A DNA stretch of 64,000 bases from Verrucomicrobiota bacterium. Its GTDB lineage: Bacteria; Verrucomicrobiota; Verrucomicrobiia; Palsa-1439. Below, piece after piece: positions 4,113-31,607 of the stretch. The stretch is from NCBI GenBank assembly GCA_037127585.1, contig JBAXYB010000002.1, positions 3,701-67,700 of the forward strand, read 5' to 3'. The stretch's first letter is position 1, and the number at the start of each line of letters is the position of its first letter. Under the pieces are notes generated by a model. The model was given only the letters and a program-made list of their open reading frames with translations, had not been told where the DNA came from and did no database searches. A program made the position numbers and the translations under genes.

Positions 4113-4715
4113 TGGACGCCGTCCGGTCCCCAGAGAATCTACGCCGACTCCGCCGGCGGCGTTCGCCGGTCGGAGACAGCGTTCGCCTCGGCGATTGACG
4201 CCGCGCGCGTCCCGAGTCGGATCTTTGGGGTCCAAGATGCCGGGCGGGATGGCGAGCATCTGGAGCAGATACCGGCGGACCAGGTGGCGTGGGAGTTGGC
4301 GGAAAGTCGGAAACAGTTGGAGGATTTATTCCAGCGCCCCATCCGCGGCTTCGCCTATCCGTACAGCACGTACAGTCCGTCTGTGAAAGAGGAAGTTCGC
4401 CGGTAAGGCTCCGTCTACGCGCGGACGGCTATTCCCGGCCCCGAGTACGCCGTCGCACCGATCAACGTCCCCTCGGTCTTTCCACCCACTGACCCCATGG
4501 AGTTTGGGACCACGACACATCGGTTGAACCCGCGCATTTGGGACGAGTTTAACCACACGAAGGTCACCGGCGGCGTGTTTCATTTCTGGGGACACAGTTA
4601 CGAATTCTTGAACGAAACGATGTGGAAAGAATTTGAAGCGAAGCGCGCCCGGCTCAGCGCCGATCCGGACGTTCGCTGGATGACCAACCTCGATCTCTTC
4701 AACGAACCGCGATAA
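4113..4715 (+). pseudogene. polysaccharide deacetylase-family gene remnant (C-terminal part only) interrupted by an in-frame TAA at ~4404-4406
   Basis: A single reading frame (phase of ORF 4497..4715) translates ...LEDLFQRPIRGFAYPYSTYSPSVKEEVRR*GSVYARTAIPGPEY...MEFGTT...GGVFHFWGHSYEF. FAYPYx...EEVRRaGY.yA.Tt.pG is the typical PF01522 C-terminal pattern. The stop falls where Ala/Gly-Tyr is expected. TGA at 4110-4112 closes the frame upstream, so no intact N-terminal catalytic half is present. Confidence 0.5.
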
Positions 4716-14971: not shown

Positions 14972-16020
<1,049 letters not shown>

Positions 16021-16033
16021 CCGGGAGATTCAC

Positions 16034-16615
16034 GTGAAGAAATTTATCATCGCCGGTCTGGCGCTGAGTCCAGCGCTGGCATTTGCGGCCGAAGAAGCCG
16101 CCGAACATGCCGGCGGCGGCCCGCTCGAAATCAACTGGGGACTGCAAATCTGGGTCATCGCCACATTCGTGGTCATGATGGGTTTGCTCGCGAAACTCTC
16201 ATTCAAGCCCATCGGTGAGGCTCTCGAACGCCGCGGTTCGACCATCAAGGCTGCGCTCGACGAAGCTGAGAAGTCGCGCGCCGATGCGAAGAAGCTGATG
16301 GAAGATTACCAGAAGCAAATCGCCGAAGCCCGCGCCGAAGCCGCCAAAGTCATCGAAGAAGCCCGGCAACTCGGCGAAAAAGTCCGCAAGGATGTCGTCG
16401 ACAAGGCCACCGTTGAAGCTTCCGCCGTTGTCTCCCGCGCGCAGGAAGAGATCGTTCGCCAGAAGGACAAAGGCATCCAGGAAATGAAGGACACCATCGC
16501 GAATCTTTCCGTCCAGATTGCCTCCAAGGTCATCGAAAAAGAAGTCAACGAAGCCACGCACAAGCAGCTCGTTGAGAACCTGATCAAAGACCTCGCCAAA
16601 GTTCGGAAGCAGTAA
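16034..16615 (+). CDS. atpF: F0 ATP synthase subunit b
   Basis: 193 aa: N-terminal TM then a long charged coiled coil. Confidence 0.85.
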   Translation: MKKFIIAGLALSPALAFAAEEAAEHAGGGPLEINWGLQIWVIATFVVMMGLLAKLSFKPIGEALERRGSTIKAALDEAEKSRADAKKLMEDYQKQIAEARAEAAKVIEEARQLGEKVRKDVVDKATVEASAVVSRAQEEIVRQKDKGIQEMKDTIANLSVQIASKVIEKEVNEATHKQLVENLIKDLAKVRKQ

Positions 16616-17151
16616 TGGCTCACGACCCGATCAATACCGGCTACGCTCGCGCCCTCTTTGAGATGGCGCAAGCCGAAGGCGTGGTCAGCCGCGTCGAGGA
16701 AGAACTCTTCCGTCTCCGGGAACTCCTCAAAGCCAACCCGGAACTATTTCAGTTCCTCAAAGATCCGAACATCAAACCCGAAGGCAAGCGCACCGCGCTC
16801 GGCGATCTTTTCCAAGGCCGCGTCCATCCGCTCGTGCTTTCGACGCTCATTTCGCTCAGCGATCAAGACCGTGCCGGCCGCGTGCTTCACGTCATCGAAG
16901 ATTTCAGCAACATTGCCGCCGCGGCGCGCCAAACCATTACCGGCGAAGTTACCGTGGTCGTCACACTCGACGACGCCACGCTCGGCCGCATGGCCACCGA
17001 GCTCAGCCGCATCACCGGCAAGAACGTCAAACTCCTCCAGAAAATCGACCCGGCCATCCTCGGCGGCGCGATCATCACCGTCGGCGAACAAATCATCGAC
17101 GGCAGCCTGCGTCGCAAGCTCGATCAGCTTAAAGACAAGTTAGCGCAGTAA
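16615..17151 (+). CDS. atpH: F1 ATP synthase subunit delta (OSCP)
   Basis: 178 aa. [10 protein letters not shown]-terminus typical of delta. Confidence 0.85.
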
Positions 17152-17161
17152 GAGGTCAATC

Positions 17162-18712
17162 ATGCCCGACATACTCACACTCGACTCCAAACAAATCTCC
17201 GACGTCCTCCGCAAGAGCATCAGCGAATTCAAATCGGAAGTCACCGTTCAGGAAGTTGGCGAAGTCCTCGAATGCGGCGACGGTATCGCCCGCGTTTCCG
17301 GCCTGCCGAACTGCCTCTCCGAAGAAATGCTCGAATTCCCCGGCGGCAACTACGGCGTCGCGCTCAACCTCGAACGCGACAACGTCGGCGTCATGATTCT
17401 CGGCGATTACACGCAGATCGAAGAAGGCCAACTCGTCAAGCGCACCGGCCGCATCCTCAGCGTCCCGGTCGGCGACGCCTTGCTCGGTCGCGTCGTCAAC
17501 GCGCTCGGCCAGCCCATCGACGGCAAAGGTCCGATCAACACTTCCACGATGCGCCCGATCGAAGGCCGCAGCCCCAGCGTCATCGAACGCGAACCGGTCA
17601 AGCAGCCGTTGGCGACCGGCATCAAGTCCATCGACGCGATGATTCCGATTGGCCGCGGCCAACGCGAACTCATCATCGGCGACCGCCAGACCGGCAAGAC
17701 CGCCATCTGCGTCGACACGATCATCAATCAAAAAGGCGGCGACGTGATGTGTATCTACGTCGCCATCGGCCAGAAGAAGTCCACCGTCGTCAGCGTCGTC
17801 GAGATCTTGGAGAAGGCCGGCGCGATGCCGTACACCATCGTCGTCAGCGCCACTGCCAGCGACGCCGCTCCGATGCAGTTCGTCGCCCCCTACGCCGGCA
17901 CGGCGATGGGCGAATACTTCCGCGACCTCGGCAAGCACGCCCTCATCATTTACGACGATCTTTCCAAGCACGCGATTGCCTACCGGCAAATCTCGTTGCT
18001 GTTGCGTCGTCCGCCCGGCCGCGAAGCGTTCCCAGGTGACGTATTCAACGTCCACAGCCGGTTGCTCGAACGTTCTGCCAAGCTGAACATCGACGCTCCG
18101 AAGCTCAATCCGATTTATCCGAAGGGTGGCGGCTCGCTTACCGCGTTGCCGATCATCGAGACGCAGGAAGGAGACTTCTCGGCGTACATCCCGACGAACG
18201 TCATCTCGATCACCGATGGTCAGATTTACCTCGAATCCGACTTGTTCTACGCCGGTATTCGTCCCGCCGTCTCGGTTGGTCTCTCGGTCAGCCGCGTCGG
18301 TGGCGCAGCGCAAACCAAGGCGATGAAGAAGATCGCCGGTACGCTCCGTCTCAGTCTCGCGCAATACCGGGAACTCGCCGCATTCGCGCAATTGTCGAGC
18401 GACCTCGACAAAAACACGAAAGCGCAACTTGATCGCGGCCAGCGCATGGTCGAATTGCTCAAGCAGCCGCAATATCAGCCGATGACGAACGAAGATCAGG
18501 TCTCGGTTCTCTGGGCCGCGACCAACGGTTACCTCGACGGCGTGGCCGTCCCGTCGATCCGCAAGTTCGAAGTCGAGTTCCTGCAATTCCTCAAGAGCAA
18601 ATACGCTTCGACCGTGGAGCAGTTGCGCGCGAAGAAAGAATTGACCGACGAAATCGTCGCCGGCTTGAAGAAGGCTGCCGAAGAATTCAAAGGCATTTTC
18701 TCCGGTAACTAA
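17162..18712 (+). CDS. atpA: F1 ATP synthase subunit alpha
   Basis: 516 aa. Walker A GDRQTGKT and the alpha-specific sequence throughout. Confidence 0.95.
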
Positions 18713-18715
18713 GGA

Positions 18716-19582
18716 ATGGCCAGTCTCCGCGACATCCGCCGGCGCATCAAAGGCGTTAAGAACATCCGGCAGGTCACCAAAGCGATGAACATGATCGCTG
18801 CGGCCCGGTTGCGTCGCGCCCAGCAAAAGGCAGAGTCCGCCCGGCCGTACGCCGACCGGCTCGCCGAAATCTTGCAGGACGTGATGGCATCGAGCGGCGG
18901 TGCGGCCCGGCATCCGTTGATGGCGAAGCGCGAAGTGAAGAAGATCGCGCTCGTGATCATCACCGCTGACCGTGGCCTGTGCGGCGCGTTCAATGCCGGC
19001 ATCATCCGCGAAGCGCAGCGTTTTCTCCGGGAGCAGACGCAGCCGGTCGAGTTGATCACCGTCGGTCGCAAGGCGCGCGATCATTTTCAACGGCTCGATT
19101 ACAAAATCGCCCAGCATTTCACCCAGCCGTCGCGCGATATCCGGCTGGAAGAAGTCGGCGGCGTGAGCAAGCTGGTCATCGGTGAGTACGGCGGCGCGAA
19201 GTATGACCAGGTGTTTTTAGCGTACGCGAAATTTGTCAGTGTGTTGAAGTCGCAGCCGACCGTCGTGCAGTTGCTGCCCTTCGTAAAACCCGCCGACGCC
19301 GGCAAGGTCGGTAAGGCCGCGTATGAATTTGAGCCGAACGCCGAGGAACTACTGAACACATTGCTGCCGCAGTATGTCGAGGTGTTGATTTATCGGTCGA
19401 TTGTCGAATCGCTCGCGAGCGAACAAGCCGCGCGCATGGTCGCGATGAAAGCCGCCACCGACAGCGCGTCCGATATGATCACCGGGCTGACGCGCAAGTA
19501 CAACAACGCCCGGCAAGCCAGCATCACGAATCAATTGTTGGAAGTCGTATCCGGCGCCGACGCGCTGGCGAAAAAGGACTAG
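18716..19582 (+). CDS. atpG: F1 ATP synthase subunit gamma
   Basis: 288 aa. N-terminal MASLRDIRRRIKGVKNIRQVTKAM is the gamma hallmark. Confidence 0.9.
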   Translation: MASLRDIRRRIKGVKNIRQVTKAMNMIAAARLRRAQQKAESARPYADRLAEILQDVMASSGGAARHPLMAKREVKKIALVIITADRGLCGAFNAGIIREAQRFLREQTQPVELITVGRKARDHFQRLDYKIAQHFTQPSRDIRLEEVGGVSKLVIGEYGGAKYDQVFLAYAKFVSVLKSQPTVVQLLPFVKPADAGKVGKAAYEFEPNAEELLNTLLPQYVEVLIYRSIVESLASEQAARMVAMKAATDSASDMITGLTRKYNNARQASITNQLLEVVSGADALAKKD

Positions 19583-21003
<1,421 letters not shown>

Positions 21004-21004
<1 letters not shown>

Positions 21005-21417
21005 TGTCCTCGTTCGCCTTCGAAATTCTGACGTTGCAGAAAGCCTTCCTGAAAGAGGAAGTGGGCTTCGTGATCGCCCCCGGTCAGGAAGGCCAATTTG
21101 AAATCCTCGCGCACCATGCGCCCTATGTGTTCGCCCTCAAACCCGGTCCGCTTCGCATGCGCTTACCGGACGGCAAGGACAAGTATGTGGCTGTTGGGAC
21201 TGGTTTTCTCTGCGTCCAAAAAGATCGCACGACAGTCCTGACTCGGAGCGCCGAGCAGCCGCAGGATATTGACAAAGCCCGTGCCGAACGCGCCAAACAG
21301 CGTGCCGTTGAACGCCTCGCGAACAAGACCGGCACCATTGATACCGCGCGCGCGCAGGCGGCGCTGGGGCGCGCCCTTGCCAGATTGCAGGTTGCCGAGT
21401 ACCGTCCGGTGGAATGA
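21004..21417 (+). CDS. atpC: F1 ATP synthase subunit epsilon
   Basis: 137 aa. Start overlaps the atpD stop. Confidence 0.9.
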
Positions 21418-22158: not shown

Positions 22159-22680
22159 TCACTTCCGCCAGAACGTGTCTTTCTGCCCGGCTTTATAATT
22201 CACCCACCGCGCCAACACGAACAGCGCATCACTGAGTCGGTTCAGATACGGAACAGCGAGACCGTCCGGCTTGAGTCGCACACAAAACCGCTCCGCGCGC
22301 CGGCAAACCGTCCGCGCCACGTGAAGTTGAGCCGCCGCCGGTGTTCCGCCCGGTAAGATGAATTCCCGGAGCGGACCAAGCTTGGCGTTGCACGCGTCCA
22401 TTAATTTCTCCAACGCGTCAATCTGCGATTGCCGGACCATGCCCGGCGCGCCGGCCAGTTCAGCCCCGAGATCAAAGAGATCATTTTGGATTCCGGCGAG
22501 GATGGCGTCGGTCTTCTTGTCGAGCTTACCGGCCCGGGCGACGCCAATAACGGAATTCAATTCATCAACCGTCCCGTACGCCCAGAGGCGCGGCGAATCC
22601 TTGCTGACGCGTTCGCCGTCGACCAAACCGGTATCCCCGGCGTCACCGGTGCGCGTATAGATTTTTGTGAGGCGTGGCAT
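22159..22680 (-). CDS. cob(I)yrinic acid a,c-diamide / cob(I)alamin adenosyltransferase, PduO type
   Basis: 173 aa. MPRLTKIYTRTGDAGDTGL is the classic PduO-type signature. Confidence 0.85.
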   Translation of the reverse strand: MPRLTKIYTRTGDAGDTGLVDGERVSKDSPRLWAYGTVDELNSVIGVARAGKLDKKTDAILAGIQNDLFDLGAELAGAPGMVRQSQIDALEKLMDACNAKLGPLREFILPGGTPAAAQLHVARTVCRRAERFCVRLKPDGLAVPYLNRLSDALFVLARWVNYKAGQKDTFWRK

Positions 22681-23031
22681 TTAGCACTTCTGAAACTTAG
22701 CCGGGATCAGGCACATGAACTTAAACGGCTTCTCCCCGGTATTCTTGAACTGATGCTTTTCGTCTGACGGAATGTAGAGAATGTCACCGGCCTGCAGCGC
22801 AACTTCCTGCCCCTCGCGCCAGACGGTGCCCACGCCTTCGGTGATATAAATTTCGTGCTCGTACGGGTGGTTGTGCAGCGGCGTATTCCCACCGGGGGCA
22901 ACGTCAAAAAACCGCATCGCCATGCTGGGCGCGCCATCGCGGGCGGTGATCGCGACTTGATAATGACAATCCTTCACGCCGTCCATCTCCACCCGCTCCG
23001 CCGGTATGTCTTTGAGGCTCGTGATTTTCAT
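22681..23031 (-). CDS. cupin-domain protein
   Basis: 116 aa. The two-His cupin motif (PLHNHPYEHEIYITEG ... DILYIPSDEKH). Confidence 0.75.
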   Translation of the reverse strand: MKITSLKDIPAERVEMDGVKDCHYQVAITARDGAPSMAMRFFDVAPGGNTPLHNHPYEHEIYITEGVGTVWREGQEVALQAGDILYIPSDEKHQFKNTGEKPFKFMCLIPAKFQKC

Positions 23032-23046
23032 TTTGATTCCCCTGGC

Positions 23047-25221
23047 TTAGTACGGGAGGGGGAACCGGCCTGTCAGCGCTTTGACCTTGTCTTTCACCCG
23101 AGCTTGCACGGTCGTGTCAGCGGGGGCGAGGAGGACTTCGTCAATCAACGCGGCAATTTGTGTCATCTCGCCCACTTGCATCCCACGGGTCGTCATCGCG
23201 GGGGTGCCGATGCGGATGCCGCTGGTGACCGCGGGTTTTTCCGGGTCGAATGGGATCATGTTTTTGTTCACGGTGATGCCGGCGTGATCGAGGGCTTCTT
23301 GCGCGATCTTGCCGGTGAGTTTCTTCGGGCGCAGATCGACGAGCATCAGGTGATTATCGGTGCCGCCGCTGACGATCCGGTAGCCTTTTCCGGTCAGGGC
23401 CGCGGCGAGGGCCTGGGCATTCTTGACGACTTGCTGTTGGTAGGTCTTGAACTCCGGTTGCAGGGCTTCTTTGAAGCAAATGGCTTTGGCGGCAATGACG
23501 TGTTCGAGGGGGCCGCCTTGGATGCCGGGGAAGATTTGGGAGTTCACTGTTTTGGCGAGTCCTTCTTTGCAGAGTATCAACCCGCCGCGCGGGCCACGGA
23601 GGGTTTTGTGCGTCGTGGTCGTGACGATGTCCGCATACGGGACCGGGCTCGGATGGACTCCGGCCGCGACGAGGCCGGCAATGTGTGCCATGTCCACAAT
23701 CAAGGCTGCGCCGACTTCTTTGGCGATGGCAGCGAACGCGGCGAAATCGAGGATGCGCGGGTAAGCGCTGGCGCCGGCGATAATGATGCGCGGTTTTTCT
23801 GCGCGGGCAAGGCGCGCGAGTTCGTCCATGTCGATGCGTTCGTCCGTGGCGCTCAGGCCGTACGGGACGATGCGGAATAACTTGCCGGAGAAGTTGACCG
23901 GCGAACCGTGCGTCAGATGGCCGCCAAAATTCAGGCTCATCGCGAGAATGGTGTCGCCCGGTTTGGCGACGGCGAAGAACGCGGCCATGTTGGCTTGCGA
24001 ACCGGAGTGCGGCTGGACGTTGGCGTGTTCGGCGCCGAAGAGTTGTTTGGCGCGGTCGATGGCGAGCTGCTCGACGACGTCCACGCATTCACAGCCGCCG
24101 TAGTAACGCTTGCCGGGGTAGCCTTCGGCGTATTTGTTGGTGAGCACCGTGCCGGTGGCTTCGAGGATGGCCGGGGAGACGAAGTTCTCGCTGGCGATCA
24201 GTTCGATGTTGTCCTGCTGGCGTTGTTGCTCGTGCTGGATGGCGCCGAAGATCTCGGGGTCGACTTGCTCGATGGCTGAGGTTTTGTTTTTTAGTGGTGT
24301 GGGTGGGTTGTCCATTTTCTTTACGCGCCGCTCGTGGCGGCCTCCTTCAAATTCGGTTTTGAGCCAGGCTTCGAGTATCAATGTCGCCTTGGCGTCGTTC
24401 ATTTCCAAGGCGGAGAGGACGAGAATGTTGGCGTCGTTGTGTTCGCGGCTCAGTTTCGCCCAGTGCTCGTCGTTGACCAGCGCCGCGCGGGCGCCGATGA
24501 CGCGGTTGGCGGCGATGCTCATGCCGATGCCGCTTTTGCAGATGAGCACGCCGCGGTCGAAGTTGCCGGTGGCCACTTCGCGGGCGACGACGAACGCGTA
24601 ATCGGGATAGTCCACAGCATCCGTCGAGTGGGTGCCGAAATCGGCGAATTGATATCCGTGTTGCACGAGCCAGTCTTTGACGGTTTCTTTCATCGCGACG
24701 CCCCCATGGTCGGCGGCGACGGCCACGCGGGTGACTTGCCGGGGCTTGGGGGATTCGCGGTGCACTTCGGTGCCTTTGATGAATTCCAAAATGCTCGGCA
24801 ACGCCTGCTGGATCTGGTCACGGGTGCGCCGATAGACGTCGAGCGATTGGCCAATCGGATCGGACACGTCTCGGCCAATGACTTCGGCGTCCTCGAATTC
24901 CCGCAGCAGAAAAGTTTTTTCGGCCGCGCTCGGATAAAACGCTTGGATCGTGTCCTGTTGTTGCCGGGTCATCGTAAAGATGAAGTCAGCGGCTTCGACC
25001 AACGGGACACGCAACGACTGGCTGACGTGGCTGGCAATGTCCAACCCGATTTCAGCCATCGCTTGCACGGACTCCGGGCTGGCCAGTTGGCCATCGAGCG
25101 CGCCAATGCCGGCGGACGCGACCCGGTAGTTTGGATTATTACCCAACGCAGCGCGCAACAACCCCTCCGCCATCGGGCTGCGACAGACGTTGCCGGTGCA
25201 GATAAAGAGGATCGTTTTCAT
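23047..25221 (-). CDS. glyA: tri-domain fusion protein: low-molecular-weight protein tyrosine (arginine) phosphatase + ribose-5-phosphate isomerase B + serine hydroxymethyltransferase
   Basis: Single uninterrupted 724-aa ORF. aa 1-~155: LMW-PTP with P-loop CTGNVCRS and DP general-acid motif. aa ~160-~305: RpiB/LacAB ([10 protein letters not shown] ... [15 protein letters not shown]). aa ~310-724: SHMT (IASENF ... [14 protein letters not shown] with the PLP lysine). Domains are joined by short linkers with no intervening stops. Confidence 0.85.
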
Positions 25222-26468
25222 CGCCAGGACAAGAGCACGCGAATGCCTTTCAAAATATCGACCGCCCGCTGCAACACGATGTCGCGGACCGTCTGCAAGT
25301 CGCCATCTTCCTCAGTCGTGCCGAGCGCCAACGCGTTCGTCGCCAGACCGGATTGTCCGCCGAGCTTGAGGGCCGGCGACTCGATGCGGTCGCCGCGAAA
25401 AGCCTTCACCAGTTCCGCCTCGGAATAGCCCTTCTTCTTCACGCGCGCCTGCAAGCTGGCGGTCAGCGTCATGTTCGTTTGCAAATTAAACACCACCTCG
25501 TGCTCGGTCTGCGGATCGATCTTCACCATGATATCGGGAATCAATCCGCCGGGAAAAGTCGCGCCGCCTTTGGGAAACGAAATCTTTGCCGTGGCCAGCC
25601 GGAGCACGCGGCCGTCGGACAGCTTCACATCTTCCCAAGCGACCGGTAAGCCCGAGGTCGGTCCGCCAATCACAATCCCGCGATCCTGAGCGCGTAACGC
25701 GCCGACGAGGACTTCGGCGCTGCCGCGCGTGTCCCCGTTGACCAACAACATCAACGGCGCGTTCGCCAATTCGCTGGCCAACGTCTTGGGCGCCTCGACG
25801 GTGTGAAACACTTGCGGTTCGCCAGTGGATTGCTTCAGTTGGAACACCTCCACGCCCGCCGTCAGAAACCGGCTCGCGACGATGGCCGCCGCGGCATAAT
25901 TCGTTCCGTCAGCAAACCGCAGATCGAGAATGTAGCCGGTCACCTTGGCATCGGCGAATTTCTTAAACTCGGTATCCAACGCCAGCGCTGTCTCCGGCGT
26001 CACGTCGACGAGGCGAATGTAGCCGATGTCCGGCTGAATGGCCTCGACCCGCGCCAGCGGCTCGTGTGTGAGATCGACAGTCGGCGTGACCACAGTGGAA
26101 TTCGAGGCCGCTTCCTCCGCGGTGAGCAACTTCGCCCCCGCCCCGAGCATCTGCAGCAGGCCGGCCACCGAAGCAGCATTCAGCTTCTTCGCATCCAGCG
26201 TCTCGCGGTCAACATAGTGTTGCTTGAGCACGTCGATGAGTTCACCCGCCGGCAAGCCTGGCGTTTCCGCGATCAGTCCGAACCCTTTTGTCGGCACGGG
26301 TGGCTCATCGGTAATCGCACGCGGTTTGCCATCACGACTCTTGAGAACATCCATCGGTCCGATTTTTGCCGGCATCTGCGGTGTCTCAGGAGTCACACTG
26401 GGCTCGTCTCCATGACCGGTAACGGTCAGCAGCAGTGCCAATAGGCTAAGGAAAAGTTTATGTTTCAT
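25218..26468 (-). CDS. S41-family (C-terminal processing / tail-specific-like) peptidase, secreted
   Basis: 416 aa with an N-terminal signal peptide. S41 catalytic-region motif [33 protein letters not shown]. Confidence 0.75.
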
Positions 26469-27697
26469 TTATGTCGTGCCGCGATGTCGCGGCGATAATG
26501 CGCGCCCTCGAAGTGAATCAACTCCACGCCCGCATACGCGCGCTGCACCGCTTCCGTAATGTTCGCGCCGAGGCCGGTCACGCCGAGGACCCGGCCGCCG
26601 TCAGTCACCAACGTGTCGCCAACCTGCTTCGTGCCGGCGTGAAACACGGTGACGTTAGCCAACTTACCGGCCTCTTTCAACCCGTCAATCACTTTCCCGC
26701 GTTCATAGTTACCGGGATAACCGCCGGCCGTCATGACCACGCACGCCGCCGCCCCGGGCTTCCATTTCACCGTAAATTTATCGAGCGTCCCGGCCGCCGT
26801 CGCGAGACAGGCTTCCACGAGATCAAAATCCATCCGCGGCACCACCACTTGCGTCTCCGGGTCGCCGAACCGGCAGTTGAACTCAATGACCTGCGGCCCC
26901 GTCTTCGTCAACATCAGCCCGGCATAGAGCACGCCCCGGTAATCAATGCCGTCGGCTTTCAACCCGGCCAATGTGCGCGCGAAAATATCTGTGGCATCCA
27001 CCGGTATCCCCATCGGCGAATACGCCCCCATCCCCCCGGTATTCAACCCGGTATCATTGTCGCCGACGCGTTTGTGATCTTGGGCCGGCACGAGGATCTT
27101 GAAGTTCTGACCGTCCACCAACGCCATCACGCTGGCTTCTTCGCCGACGAGACAATCTTCGATGACGACCTGCGCGCCGGCATCGCCGAACACGCGTTTC
27201 TCCATGATGTCGGTAATGGCTTGTTCGGCTTCCGCCACGGTCTTGGCAACGATGACGCCTTTGCCGGCGGCGAGACCGTCGGCTTTGACGACAATCGGCG
27301 CACCGTGTTGGCGGACGTAAGCGCGGGCGGCGGCCGGTTGGTCGAAGATGCCGGCGGCGGCGGTTGGGATGCCGTGTTTTAAGAGGAAGCGTTTCGAGAA
27401 AACTTTACTGCCTTCGAGTTGCGCTGCGGCTTGGGTCGGGCCGAAAATCCGGAGTCCGCGAGCGTGAAATGCGTCGGCGATGCCGGCGCAGAGGGGCACT
27501 TCGGGGCCGACGACGGTAAGATCAATTTGGTTTTCGGCAGCGAAGGCGACCGGATCGGTCAGGGTCACGCATTCGGCAAGTTGCGCGATACCGGGGTTAC
27601 CGGGGGCGCAGTATAGTTTTGTGTCGTGCCGGCTTTGGGCCAGCTTCCACACCAAAGCATGTTCGCGGCCGCCGCCGCCAATAACCAAAACCTTCAT
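26465..27697 (-). CDS. purD: phosphoribosylamine--glycine ligase
   Basis: 410 aa. ATP-grasp PurD conserved throughout (MKVLVIGGGGREHAL...). Confidence 0.9.
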   Translation of the reverse strand: MKVLVIGGGGREHALVWKLAQSRHDTKLYCAPGNPGIAQLAECVTLTDPVAFAAENQIDLTVVGPEVPLCAGIADAFHARGLRIFGPTQAAAQLEGSKVFSKRFLLKHGIPTAAAGIFDQPAAARAYVRQHGAPIVVKADGLAAGKGVIVAKTVAEAEQAITDIMEKRVFGDAGAQVVIEDCLVGEEASVMALVDGQNFKILVPAQDHKRVGDNDTGLNTGGMGAYSPMGIPVDATDIFARTLAGLKADGIDYRGVLYAGLMLTKTGPQVIEFNCRFGDPETQVVVPRMDFDLVEACLATAAGTLDKFTVKWKPGAAACVVMTAGGYPGNYERGKVIDGLKEAGKLANVTVFHAGTKQVGDTLVTDGGRVLGVTGLGANITEAVQRAYAGVELIHFEGAHYRRDIAARHK

Positions 27698-27740
27698 AAA
27701 CTCGCGGCGGCACTGTAGGAGAGTGCAGCAACTGGGTCAA

Positions 27741-28592: not shown

Positions 28593-31500
28593 TTAGGAAC
28601 AGCCCATGGAGTTGCCACAGTTCAGGCACTTGTAGCACGCGCCGTTGCGGACGGTGATCGCGCCGCAGGTGTCGCAGGTCGGGGCATCGGTCATGAAGTG
28701 CGCGATGGTTTTGCTCAGGGCTTGGACGCTGGTCAACGGCCGGGCGGCGACTTCGCCGGTCTGTTCCAGATCCTGGACGGGCCGGTTGACGGCTTTTTGC
28801 TCTTGTTCGGCGACTTCTTTGAGTGGCAATTCGGTCTGGCCGGCGTTGGGCGAGTTGGCTTCGCGGTAGCCGGGGATGAACTGGCAAGCCAGCCAACGGA
28901 AGAGGTAGTCGGTGATCGACTTGGCAATCGGAATGTCCGGGTTCTTCGTGAAGCCGGACGGTTCGAACCGTTGGTGGGCGAATTTTTTGACGAGCGTTTC
29001 GAGCGGCACGCCGTATTGAAACGCCATGCTGACGAGGGTGCCGATGGTGTCCATGAGGCCGCCGATGGTCGAGCCTTCTTTGGCCATGGTGATGAACAAC
29101 TCGCCGGGGGTGCCGTCTTCGTAGAGCCCGACGGTGATGTAGCCTTCGTGGCCGGCAATGTCGAATTTGTGCGTGACCGCCTGCCGCGTGTCCGGCAACC
29201 GATGGCGCAGGGGCGCGGCGGCGCGGGTGCGCAGTTCGTTAATTTCGGAATCGAGTTCGAGGATGCGCGATTTGAGTTCGTCCGTTTCCTGAACGGTCGG
29301 GGCGGGCTTGCCGCTGTTGGTCTTGGACGTGTTGAGAGGCTGGGAACGTTTCGAGCCGTCCCGGTAGATCGCAACCGCCTTGAGGCCGAGCTTCCAGCCT
29401 TCAATGTACGTCTGCATGATGTCGTCAACCGTGGCGTCCTGGGGCATGTTGACGGTCTTGGAGATGGCGCCGCTGAGGAACGGTTGCGCCGCGGCCATCA
29501 TCTTGAGGTGCGCCAGATAATGGATGGTGCGTTTGCCTTTGGCGGGTTTGAACGCGCAGTCGAACACCGGCAGGTGTTTGTCTTGCAGATCCGGCGCGCC
29601 TTCGATGGTGTCGTTCGCGTCGACGAACTTCACAATGTCGGTGATCTGGGACTCGCTGTAGCCGAGTTTGCGCAAGGCCATCGGCACGGTCCGGTTGACG
29701 ATTTTCAGCATCCCGCCGCCGGCGAGGAGTTTGTATTTCACGAGCGCGATGTCGGGTTCGACGCCGGTGGTGTCGCAGTCCATCATGAACGCGATCGTGC
29801 CGGTCGGCGCGAGGACGGTGACTTGGGAGTTGCGATAGCCGTACCGGCGACCGAGCTCGACGGCTTCGTCGCCACAACGTTGCGCGGCAGCCCGGAGGTA
29901 GTCGGGGCAGCTCGGGTGAATGCGTTTCACGGAGTCGCGATGTTGTTCCATGACTTGGAGCATCGGCTCGCGGTTCTTCTCGAAGCCTTCAAACGCGCCG
30001 AGCTTCTCGGCGATCCGTGCGGATTGCACGTAGGCTTGGAGGTGGATGATGGCCGTCAACGCGCCGGCAATGGAGCGTCCTTCGTCGCTGTCGTAGGGCA
30101 GACCGAGCGCCATGAGCAGCGAACCGAGGTTCGCGTAGCCGAGACCGAGCGGGCGGAAGAGATGGCTGTTCTGCGCGATGTCATTGGTCGGATAACTCGC
30201 GTTATCGACCATGATTTCCTGGGCGGTAATGAAGATTTCAGCGGCGGCTTTGTAGCGTTCGACATCAAAGGTGCCGTCGTCGCGGAGGAACTTCATCAAA
30301 TTCAGCGAGGCGAGGTTGCACGCGCTGTTGTCGAGGAACATGTACTCGGAGCACGGGTTGCTGGAGTTGATCGGTGCGGTGTTTTTGCAGGTGTGCCAGC
30401 GTTGGATGGTGTCCTCGTACTGGACGCCGGGATCGCCGCAGGTCCACGTGCCTTCGGCGATGCCTTGCATCAACTCGCGGGCTTTGTACGTCGGGCCGGG
30501 CTTGCTGGGGTCGGTGACCCAGTGGGTCGTCCAATCCTTGTCGTCGATGACGGCGCGCATGAACTCGTCGGTCACGCGGACGCTGAGGTTTTCATTTTGG
30601 AACGAGACGGAGCCGTAGGCGTCCCCGTTGAAGTCGCCCGAATAGCCGGCTTCAATCAACGACCACGCTTTCCGCTCTTCCTTCGGCTTGGCTTCGATGA
30701 AGTCCTTGATGTCCGGATGCCAGACTTTCAAGGTGTTCATCTTCGCCGCGCGCCGGGTCTTGCCGCCCGATTTCACCACGCTGGCGATCGAATCGAACAC
30801 GCGCAGGAACGACATCGGCCCGCTCGGCCGGCCGCCGCCGGACAGTTTCTCGCGCCGGCTGCGCAACGTGGAGAGATCGGTGCCGGTGCCGCTGCCATAC
30901 TTGAAGAGCATCGCTTCGGCCCGCGCCAATTCCATGATGTCTTCCATCGTGTCGCCCACCGATTGGATGAAACAGGCTGAGCACTGCGGATACTCGTATT
31001 GCGTGGTGGCCTGTTTGATCTGGTTTGTCTGGCGGTCGAAGCAGAAGTTACCGGGGCCGCTGTTTTTCCCGATGTGATATTCGTGATAGAGACCGCAGTT
31101 GAACCAGACCGGCGAGTTAAACGAGCCGTACTGGTTGACGCACAACCAGGTCAACTCGTCATAGAACGCATCGGCGTCCTTATCGCTGGCGAAATAGCCC
31201 TGCGCGCGACCCCAGTCTGAGACGGTGTTAGTGACGCGGTGGACGAGTTGCCGGACGCTGTGCTCGCGTTCGCTGGTGCCGTTCTCGCCGTAGAAATATT
31301 TTGAGACCACGACCTTCGTCGCGAGAATCGACCAGTTCTTCGGCACTTCGACGTTGTCCTGTTTGAAGATCGTCTTGCCGGCGTCATCGGTAATCTCGGC
31401 TTTGCGGCGTTCCCATTCGAGTTCGTCGAACGGTTTCACGCCGGCCCGACTGAAAACGCGCGGCACAATTAGCCCATTTTTCTTGGCGCTCGGTTTGGAT

Positions 31501-31607
31501 CGTTTACTCGGACTGCTGATGGTGGGAATATCGGCTTCAACTTCTTTACGGCTTAACTTTGTTTTATGCACAGAAAATACTCCTGTGCTCTGCTTCAGAT
31601 TGATCAC
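28593..31607 (-). CDS. nrdJ: class II adenosylcobalamin-dependent ribonucleotide reductase
   Basis: 1004 aa. B12-dependent RNR conserved core plus a C-terminal Cys-rich Zn-ribbon (CDTCGAITVRNGACYKCLNCG). GTG start preceded by AGGAGG at a 5-nt spacing. Confidence 0.9.
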   Translation of the reverse strand: MINLKQSTGVFSVHKTKLSRKEVEADIPTISSPSKRSKPSAKKNGLIVPRVFSRAGVKPFDELEWERRKAEITDDAGKTIFKQDNVEVPKNWSILATKVVVSKYFYGENGTSEREHSVRQLVHRVTNTVSDWGRAQGYFASDKDADAFYDELTWLCVNQYGSFNSPVWFNCGLYHEYHIGKNSGPGNFCFDRQTNQIKQATTQYEYPQCSACFIQSVGDTMEDIMELARAEAMLFKYGSGTGTDLSTLRSRREKLSGGGRPSGPMSFLRVFDSIASVVKSGGKTRRAAKMNTLKVWHPDIKDFIEAKPKEERKAWSLIEAGYSGDFNGDAYGSVSFQNENLSVRVTDEFMRAVIDDKDWTTHWVTDPSKPGPTYKARELMQGIAEGTWTCGDPGVQYEDTIQRWHTCKNTAPINSSNPCSEYMFLDNSACNLASLNLMKFLRDDGTFDVERYKAAAEIFITAQEIMVDNASYPTNDIAQNSHLFRPLGLGYANLGSLLMALGLPYDSDEGRSIAGALTAIIHLQAYVQSARIAEKLGAFEGFEKNREPMLQVMEQHRDSVKRIHPSCPDYLRAAAQRCGDEAVELGRRYGYRNSQVTVLAPTGTIAFMMDCDTTGVEPDIALVKYKLLAGGGMLKIVNRTVPMALRKLGYSESQITDIVKFVDANDTIEGAPDLQDKHLPVFDCAFKPAKGKRTIHYLAHLKMMAAAQPFLSGAISKTVNMPQDATVDDIMQTYIEGWKLGLKAVAIYRDGSKRSQPLNTSKTNSGKPAPTVQETDELKSRILELDSEINELRTRAAAPLRHRLPDTRQAVTHKFDIAGHEGYITVGLYEDGTPGELFITMAKEGSTIGGLMDTIGTLVSMAFQYGVPLETLVKKFAHQRFEPSGFTKNPDIPIAKSITDYLFRWLACQFIPGYREANSPNAGQTELPLKEVAEQEQKAVNRPVQDLEQTGEVAARPLTSVQALSKTIAHFMTDAPTCDTCGAITVRNGACYKCLNCGNSMGCS

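Follow-up and report, generated by a model that had tools for sequence, protein, structure and literature searches.

Why would a bacterium carry a phosphatase, a sugar-phosphate isomerase and a one-carbon enzyme on one polypeptide chain, and is such a protein real? This question is raised by a gene on the minus strand (23047..25221; 724 codons with an ATG start, stop codon at 23047-23049) of a 64-kb stretch of DNA from a Verrucomicrobiota bacterium (assembly GCA_037127585.1, contig JBAXYB010000002.1), which we refer to as the window. The gene joins a protein tyrosine phosphatase of low molecular weight (LMW-PTP, here PTP), a ribose 5-phosphate isomerase (RpiB) and a serine hydroxymethyltransferase (SHMT). 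A preliminary description of the locus held that such a protein had not been described. This did not stand, since Minf_1669 of Methylacidiphilum infernorum V4 was published in 2008 as a protein with the same three domains, together with the proposal that the serine and pentose-phosphate pathways are tightly connected (Hou et al., 2008, Biol Direct 3:26; PMC2474590), and since the architecture is abundant in databases. Our analysis indicates, with a probability of roughly 0.8, that the fusion is the normal, conserved verrucomicrobial form of three housekeeping genes and serves as a co-expressed module of independently acting enzymes.

Pfam matches are arranged along the 724-aa protein in the order LMWPc, LacAB_rpiB and SHMT. 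All three are full-length, and their E-values are too low for chance matches. The two junctions between the domains (24740-24790 and 24280-24330) contain neither a stop codon nor a change of frame; they encode residues ~144-161 and ~298-314 and correspond to two linkers. The open reading frame, the Pfam matches and the mapping of residues described below thus bear out what the preliminary description had seen, namely a single chain whose three catalytic domains are intact and follow the order of genes in the ancestral neighbourhood. All motifs that it had named, the CX5R P-loop, the DP loop, the cysteine in LICKSG and the lysine in TTTTHKT, were found in the sequence.

The N-terminal phosphatase domain is YwlE-like and comprises residues 1-150 (24772..25221, minus strand), as delimited by Pfam and by structure alignment. 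The LMWPc match covers residues 4-143 (profile 1-142/144, E=7e-29, 101.3 bits; gathering score 23.2). The P-loop reads C8-TGNV-C13-R14-S15 and the general acid lies in D121-P122. The closest solved homologues are the YwlE proteins of B. subtilis and Geobacillus (E~2e-25), in which C7, R13, S14 and D118 align with C8, R14, S15 and D121 of the fusion. Although the phosphatase is the least conserved of the three domains, with 44-89% identity to the query across the fusions, its catalytic residues are kept, and C8, R14 and D121 are invariant. The domain is likely to be catalytically competent. The N-terminal domain alone matched no NCBIfam equivalog, and the ArsC, Wzb and Etp models all stayed under their cut-offs. 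A role as thioredoxin-coupled arsenate reductase of the pI258 type (ArsC) was considered and rejected: TIGR02691 reached 69.9 against a cut-off of 174.3, and the only cysteines of the domain are C8 and C13, with no equivalents of the redox cysteines Cys82 and Cys89. The PDB entry 4EGS, deposited as 'Ribose 5-phosphate isomerase RpiB' (180 aa), matched this phosphatase domain (residues 3-146, 24784-25215, minus strand; E=3.7e-25) and not RpiB. Its name was probably carried over from a neighbouring or fused gene.

The second domain, residues 165-303 (24313..24729, minus strand), was assigned to RpiB by Pfam, NCBIfam and structure alignment. LacAB_rpiB matches residues 166-303 over its entire profile (1-138/138, E=1e-50), and for the rpiB equivalog TIGR01120 the score of 156.5 exceeds the curated cut-off (138.65); the NCBIfam models for LacA/LacB and for erythrulose-4-phosphate isomerase gave scores far under their cut-offs for this domain. 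Alignment to the RpiB structures of C. thermocellum, T. maritima and E. coli was gapless or nearly so. The pairs D171/H172, C228/S230, H261/N262 and R295/R299 correspond to D8/H9, C65/T67, H98/N99 and R132/R136 of C. thermocellum RpiB, with C228 placed in LICKSG. We take these sites to be the cysteine base, the Thr/Ser position, the Asp-His and His-Asn pairs and the phosphate-binding arginines known from RpiB structures.

The same three approaches identified residues 317-724 (23050..24273, minus strand) as SHMT. The Pfam match spans residues 317-693 and the complete profile (1-399/399, E=3e-167, 557 bits), NCBIfam NF000586 scores 655 against a cut-off of 335, and the G. stearothermophilus enzyme aligns gapless over 400 residues (E=1e-172). 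The lysine that binds pyridoxal 5'-phosphate (PLP) is K539 in TTTTHKT, and Y364, E366, Y374, H435, D510, H513 and R670 are equivalent to Y51, E53, Y61, H122, D197, H200 and R357 of the G. stearothermophilus enzyme (bsSHMT).

How widespread is this architecture? The preliminary description had proposed a search of relatives for the same fusion, and we found it in many of them. Among 5.8 billion proteins searched, we found at least 120 clusters of 705-758 residues with 65-100% identity to the query, and the three Pfam domains are present in nearly all listed clusters. The sequences stem from ENA, JGI, NCBI and Logan assemblies, with contigs as long as 1.78 Mb. Where source organisms are named, they are Verrucomicrobiae, Verrucomicrobiota or Verrucomicrobia, and the name given to the protein reflects a single domain, usually as 'ribose 5-phosphate isomerase B' or 'serine hydroxymethyltransferase'. 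In addition, GTDB species genomes were scanned with the seeds GN[VI]CRSPMA and [IV]CKSGIGM, followed by domain-by-domain tblastn; this gives a biased sample and not a census. It revealed at least 13 further loci with the three domains in one open frame (L002-L012, L014, L054), among them loci from an Akkermansia muciniphila metagenome-assembled genome (MAG; L003), Pedosphaera (L008, L054), Chthoniobacterales (L006, L009), Spartobacteria (L011) and Verrucomicrobiales (L010, L012, L014). Distant loci are 43-57% identical to the query in PTP and RpiB and 56-81% in SHMT segments, while the closest listed cluster reaches 87% overall. One locus, L002 on contig CAZCZP010000001.1, is labelled 'uncultured Bifidobacteriaceae bacterium'. 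Its tri-fusion is near to that of Akkermansia, with 92% in the central SHMT and 69% in PTP plus RpiB, and the contig was probably mis-binned or mislabelled.

An alignment of 127 fusions was made with mafft. The mapped catalytic residues are invariant in it, including K539 and the other mapped active-site residues of SHMT, with the exception of R295 (126/127) and of S230, which is serine in 113 and threonine in 14 sequences. Judged from this conservation, the catalytic residues are held by long-term purifying selection. In twenty of the 127 gene calls the start was placed at an invariant Met17 in the SPMAE motif, with loss of the P-loop cysteine (residues 1-17 correspond to 25171-25221), so that counts for the P-loop refer to n=107. 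The Met17 starts are a systematic artefact of start calling, and the cluster representatives P0121, P0123 and P0194 show it as well.

Relatives preserve the three domains in a series of other arrangements. PTP, RpiB and SHMT are encoded by separate adjacent genes in an Actinomycetota MAG (L015), and PTP and RpiB form gene pairs in a Planctomycetota and an NC10 MAG (L018, L019). In view of these loci, the suggestion of the preliminary description that the fusion provides Rosetta-stone evidence for a functional link among the three activities is reasonable. A fusion of RpiB and SHMT with a separate PTP gene upstream was found in a Lentisphaerae MAG (L024), a 'PVC group' MAG (L023) and some Verrucomicrobia (L021, L022), and the two-domain RpiB-SHMT proteins measure 555-581 aa (L013, L021-L024; P0122, P0124, P0126, P0132, P0247). 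In L013, a Verrucomicrobiota MAG, a single in-frame stop at 4490-4492 splits PTP from RpiB-SHMT. Fusions of PTP and SHMT of ~600 aa, from which RpiB is cleanly missing, occur in Chthoniobacterales/Spartobacteria (L016, L017, L020), and sister lineages retain the tri-fusion. PTP and SHMT genes also lie next to each other without RpiB in Opitutaceae (L027, L030) and in an Acidimicrobiales MAG (L074). The two-domain forms appear to be either intermediate to the tri-fusion or derived from it. Comparison of these sequences indicates that the tri-fusion arose from an older neighbourhood of PTP, RpiB and SHMT genes via intermediates that survive in relatives. When 1.84 billion proteins were clustered at 50%, the best 150 included three tri-fusion representatives (P0121, P0123, P0194) and five of the RpiB-SHMT type. 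Other fusions to the N-terminus of SHMT were seen as well, with dihydrofolate reductase (DHFR) and thymidylate kinase (P0137, 811 aa), DHFR alone (P0145, 608 aa), FolB (P0141, 562 aa) and MeaB (P0221, 728 aa). The addition of nucleotide and folate enzymes to the N-terminus of SHMT thus appears as a recurrent theme.

The three domains are connected by two short linkers. Linker 1 comprises ~14 residues (~151-164; 24730..24771, minus strand) and linker 2 ~13 residues (~304-316; 24274..24312, minus strand). In an AlphaFold2 model, run on a shallow alignment of 20 sequences, the predicted local distance difference test (pLDDT) fell to <50 at residues 152-161 and 302-315, and both linkers are predicted to be disordered or flexible. 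Across the 127 fusions the stretch F147..R165 around linker 1 has 12-31 residues and the stretch M303..D321 around linker 2 has 10-24. The PTP and RpiB domains were modelled with pLDDT values of ~85-90 (PTP ~90), and the predicted template modelling score of 0.36 indicates no fixed geometry between the domains. The NCBI protein MEI6082762.1 (P0025) is 100% identical to the query. The record lists 572 aa under the name 'ribose 5-phosphate isomerase B', with the start placed at an internal GTG, the codon of Val153 (24763-24765), which leaves the phosphatase domain unannotated.

The position of the gene gives a first indication of its metabolic context. The gene that precedes the fusion encodes an S41 peptidase (25218-26468, minus strand) whose N-terminus is signal-peptide-like; this gene in turn follows purD (26465-27697, minus strand). 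Both junctions are 4-nt overlaps, and the co-orientation with purD and the S41 peptidase noted in the preliminary description was confirmed. In relatives, purD likewise lies upstream of the PTP/RpiB/SHMT genes, mostly with the S41 gene between (L003, L004, L008, L023, L024, L027, L030, L054, L082, L083), in a range that covers Akkermansia, Pedosphaera, Opitutaceae, the PVC-group MAG and the Lentisphaerae MAG. PurD joins glycine with phosphoribosylamine, which is derived from phosphoribosyl pyrophosphate (PRPP) and hence from ribose-5-phosphate. Through this textbook pathway the conserved purD operon would therefore link the products of both fused enzymes to purine synthesis.

We propose that the fusion is a single cytoplasmic polypeptide in which the YwlE-like phosphatase, RpiB and SHMT domains fold and act independently, joined by short, flexible linkers of variable length. 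The protein would assemble at least as a dimer through its RpiB and SHMT interfaces, because the active sites of RpiB and of bacterial SHMT form across the dimer interface. RpiB would supply ribose-5-phosphate for PRPP, and SHMT would supply glycine and 5,10-methylene-tetrahydrofolate, which together with PRPP feed purine and thymidylate synthesis. The translationally coupled purD upstream would fit such a supply of nucleotide precursors. Since the reactions of RpiB and SHMT are not consecutive steps, the benefit of the fusion would be a fixed 1:1 co-expression and not channelling. This differs from protozoan DHFR-TS (TS, thymidylate synthase), which catalyses consecutive reactions and for which channelling is documented. 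An explanation by phosphoglycolate salvage or the Calvin-Benson-Bassham cycle, which would suit M. infernorum, was rejected, as carriers such as Akkermansia are heterotrophs.

Several other explanations of the locus have to be weighed against this proposal. That a missed stop or a frameshift in the contig joined separate genes is practically out of the question, even though an in-frame stop separates PTP from RpiB in L013 and RpiB-SHMT is out of frame with the upstream PTP gene in some relatives. The continuous architecture recurs in the at least 120 independent clusters and at least 13 GTDB species representatives, the identical sequence was assembled independently (P0001, 100% identical to the query protein, on ENA contig NODE_244), and the fusion had already been reported in 2008 from a finished isolate genome. 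Because the same frame is found in many independent assemblies and the catalytic residues are invariant, an assembly or sequencing artefact can be discarded; junction stops or frameshifts, which the preliminary description had named as the observation that would speak against a fusion, are ruled out by this recurrence of the frame. A related possibility is that the chain is translated as one and acts as separate proteins, either by proteolysis at the linkers or by internal starts at the GTG of Val153 or the ATG of Met303. The predicted disorder of the linkers, the start at Val153 that the NCBI annotation pipeline (PGAP) chose, the frequent occurrence of Met303 among the fusions and the viability of fission variants in relatives all agree with this idea. 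We nevertheless consider it quite unlikely. No Shine-Dalgarno-like sequence was recognized 5-10 nt upstream of Met303 on reading the sequence, and a convincing one is absent before both internal codons. Moreover, the fused frame was kept over long times: the linkers vary in length and stops occur in 0/127 fusions, which argues that selection acts on the fused product. The adjoining S41 peptidase, with its signal-peptide-like N-terminus, would presumably not reach a cytoplasmic substrate.

The remaining alternatives concern the phosphatase. The first of them takes the N-terminal domain for a YwlE-type protein arginine phosphatase that controls proteostasis as in Bacillus, and regards its fusion as incidental. 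The domain is indeed closer to YwlE (~93 bits) than to Wzb/AmsI-type PTPs and ArsC (~60 or less), and the gene order matches the ywlE - rpiB (ywlF) - glyA region of the B. subtilis map; a literature search for a paper on the ywlE/ywlF/glyA gene order found none. Phosphoarginine specificity of YwlE and of Drosophila DARP is given by a threonine at position 5 of the P-loop (Thr11 of YwlE), and replacement of this threonine by isoleucine moves activity toward phosphotyrosine (PMC7772506). The query carries Val12 at this site. Among the homology-retrieved fusions with a called N-terminus, valine was found in 89/107, isoleucine in 18/107 and threonine in 0/107; this set was used since Val or Ile at position 5 of the pattern-seeded GTDB loci is not an independent observation. 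Because position 5 is Val or Ile in 107/107 fusions and never Thr, the fused phosphatase would, by this determinant, not be a YwlE-type phosphoarginine phosphatase. The label 'arginine phosphatase' of the preliminary description was consequently dropped, and we regard this alternative as very unlikely. A further explanation sees the protein as a regulated unit and not as three independent enzymes, with a phosphatase directed at a metabolite or at the domains to which it is fused. The candidate substrates, each of them speculative, would then be PLP, a sugar phosphate, or SHMT or RpiB with a phosphorylated residue. PLP binds tightly to LMW-PTPs. The link between PTP and SHMT outlasts the deletion of RpiB (L016, L017, L020), PTP and SHMT genes are adjacent in Opitutaceae and Acidimicrobiales (L027, L030, L074), and the domain reaches no NCBIfam equivalog. 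Its D-loop reads DPI and not DPY(Y) as in classical LMW-PTPs, where an aromatic side chain forms a wall of the phosphotyrosine pocket. This support is by association, and an inherited old operon would explain the adjacency as well, so that we hold a regulated unit to be unlikely, if conceivable. With the same reserve it may be asked whether the YwlE-like domain is functionally tied to SHMT and is no general protein phosphatase, with SHMT itself or a phospho-metabolite of the SHMT pathway as its target (PLP handling, for instance), so that the fusion would regulate itself; we consider this doubtful.

A module of independently acting enzymes remains our preferred explanation, and a number of points weigh against it. 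The PTP-SHMT fusions (L016, L017, L020) and the Opitutaceae neighbours hint at a specific relation of phosphatase and SHMT beyond co-expression, and an RpiB-SHMT isoform may start at the GTG of Val153. The SHMT part was poorly modelled by AlphaFold2 from the shallow alignment, and domain packing is not readable from the model. Genome context was covered by the 64-kb window, which limits what can be said about a second glyA, rpiA and the kinase content. Furthermore, the functional account of the fusion is inferred from sequence.

Within the SHMT domain, the central segment (residues ~405-600, ~23422-24009 of the window) occurs in two discrete sequence types, 82-90% or 61-68% identical to the query, with none between, and the type does not track similarity elsewhere in the protein and is interleaved relative to PTP/RpiB similarity. 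P0014 (L082) is 85-92% identical to the query in PTP, RpiB and N-terminal SHMT and 64% in the central segment; P0102 (L083) is 47-56% identical in PTP/RpiB and 87% in the central segment. Nucleotide identity profiles have matching breakpoints. DNA identity of the window to P0014 amounts to 73-89% at residues 1-402 and drops to 59-65% at residues 413-522, and identity to P0102 climbs from 50-67% to 72-87% over residues 323-672. The type not found in the query is nearer to distant tri-fusions. The 150 cluster representatives contained no donor of the type present in the query ('type 1'), with an identity of ~70% at best. These profiles indicate that the central SHMT segment is probably a mosaic, generated by repeated recombination within the fused gene.

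Downstream of the fusion gene, a cupin gene (22681-23031, minus strand) begins 15 nt past the stop codon and is abutted by a gene for a PduO-type cob(I)alamin adenosyltransferase (22159-22680, minus strand). This pair is not conserved in the loci of the relatives. Upstream, a promoter-like site (TTGACC-17-TACAGT, 27712..27740, minus strand) lies just before purD and may mark the start of the purD-S41-fusion unit; it is recognized by its consensus alone, and promoter-like matches are no more frequent in the region than expected by chance. A gene for a class II ribonucleotide reductase (28593-31607, minus strand; Ribonuc_red_2_N match) is located two genes upstream of purD and is closed by a strong terminator (28570-28542, minus strand), which likewise is a match to a consensus only. 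The 241-aa protein encoded between the reductase and purD has no family match. Class II ribonucleotide reductases depend on adenosylcobalamin, and the PduO-type enzyme that makes adenosylcobalamin closes the gene string that has the reductase upstream. There may be a nucleotide-synthesis theme across the region, although relatives do not share the downstream pair. An F1Fo ATP synthase operon (14972-21417, plus strand) is convergent to the fusion gene, with three genes between. The layout resembles the glyA-upp-atp arrangement of Bacillus, and the proximity may have survived from a very old neighbourhood or may be coincidental.

Among the known systems close to the query, the tri-fusions of Akkermansia, Pedosphaera, Chthoniobacterales and Verrucomicrobiales (including P0002-P0120) have the same domain order, a similar length (714-745 aa), invariant catalytic residues and mostly purD and S41 upstream. 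The RpiB-SHMT and PTP-SHMT proteins of the PVC group are subsets of this module, with one domain missing or separately encoded. DHFR-SHMT, DHFR-thymidylate kinase-SHMT and FolB-SHMT are likewise N-terminal fusions to SHMT from the same metabolic area, with other partners. The Bacillus neighbourhood has the same order of families as the fusion but encodes separate polypeptides. In addition, the phosphoarginine phosphatase YwlE of Bacillus carries Thr11 (PMC7772506), in contrast to the Val/Ile of the fused domain. Minf_1669 shares its three domains and its phylum with the query, from which we infer that the two are orthologous; its host is an acidophilic methanotroph of a different order, and the protein received a one-sentence mention in a genome paper without biochemistry. 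Our literature searches found no biochemical study of the tri-fusion, and only Hou et al. (2008) mention the protein.

The discovery value of the gene as such is limited, since it is typical of its lineage, was already published in 2008 and has hundreds of database entries. Annotation pipelines label the fusion by one of its domains or shorten it, as in the NCBI record that drops the phosphatase. The fusion also occurs in Akkermansia muciniphila, which is cultivable and medically studied. If the phosphatase were indeed tied to SHMT, this would imply a metabolic role for the widespread and so far unexplained linkage of phosphatase and glyA. The series of fusion states itself provides clean Rosetta-stone evidence that links a YwlE-like phosphatase, RpiB and SHMT around the supply of nucleotide precursors, and it could guide work on the roles of non-arginine YwlE-like phosphatases.

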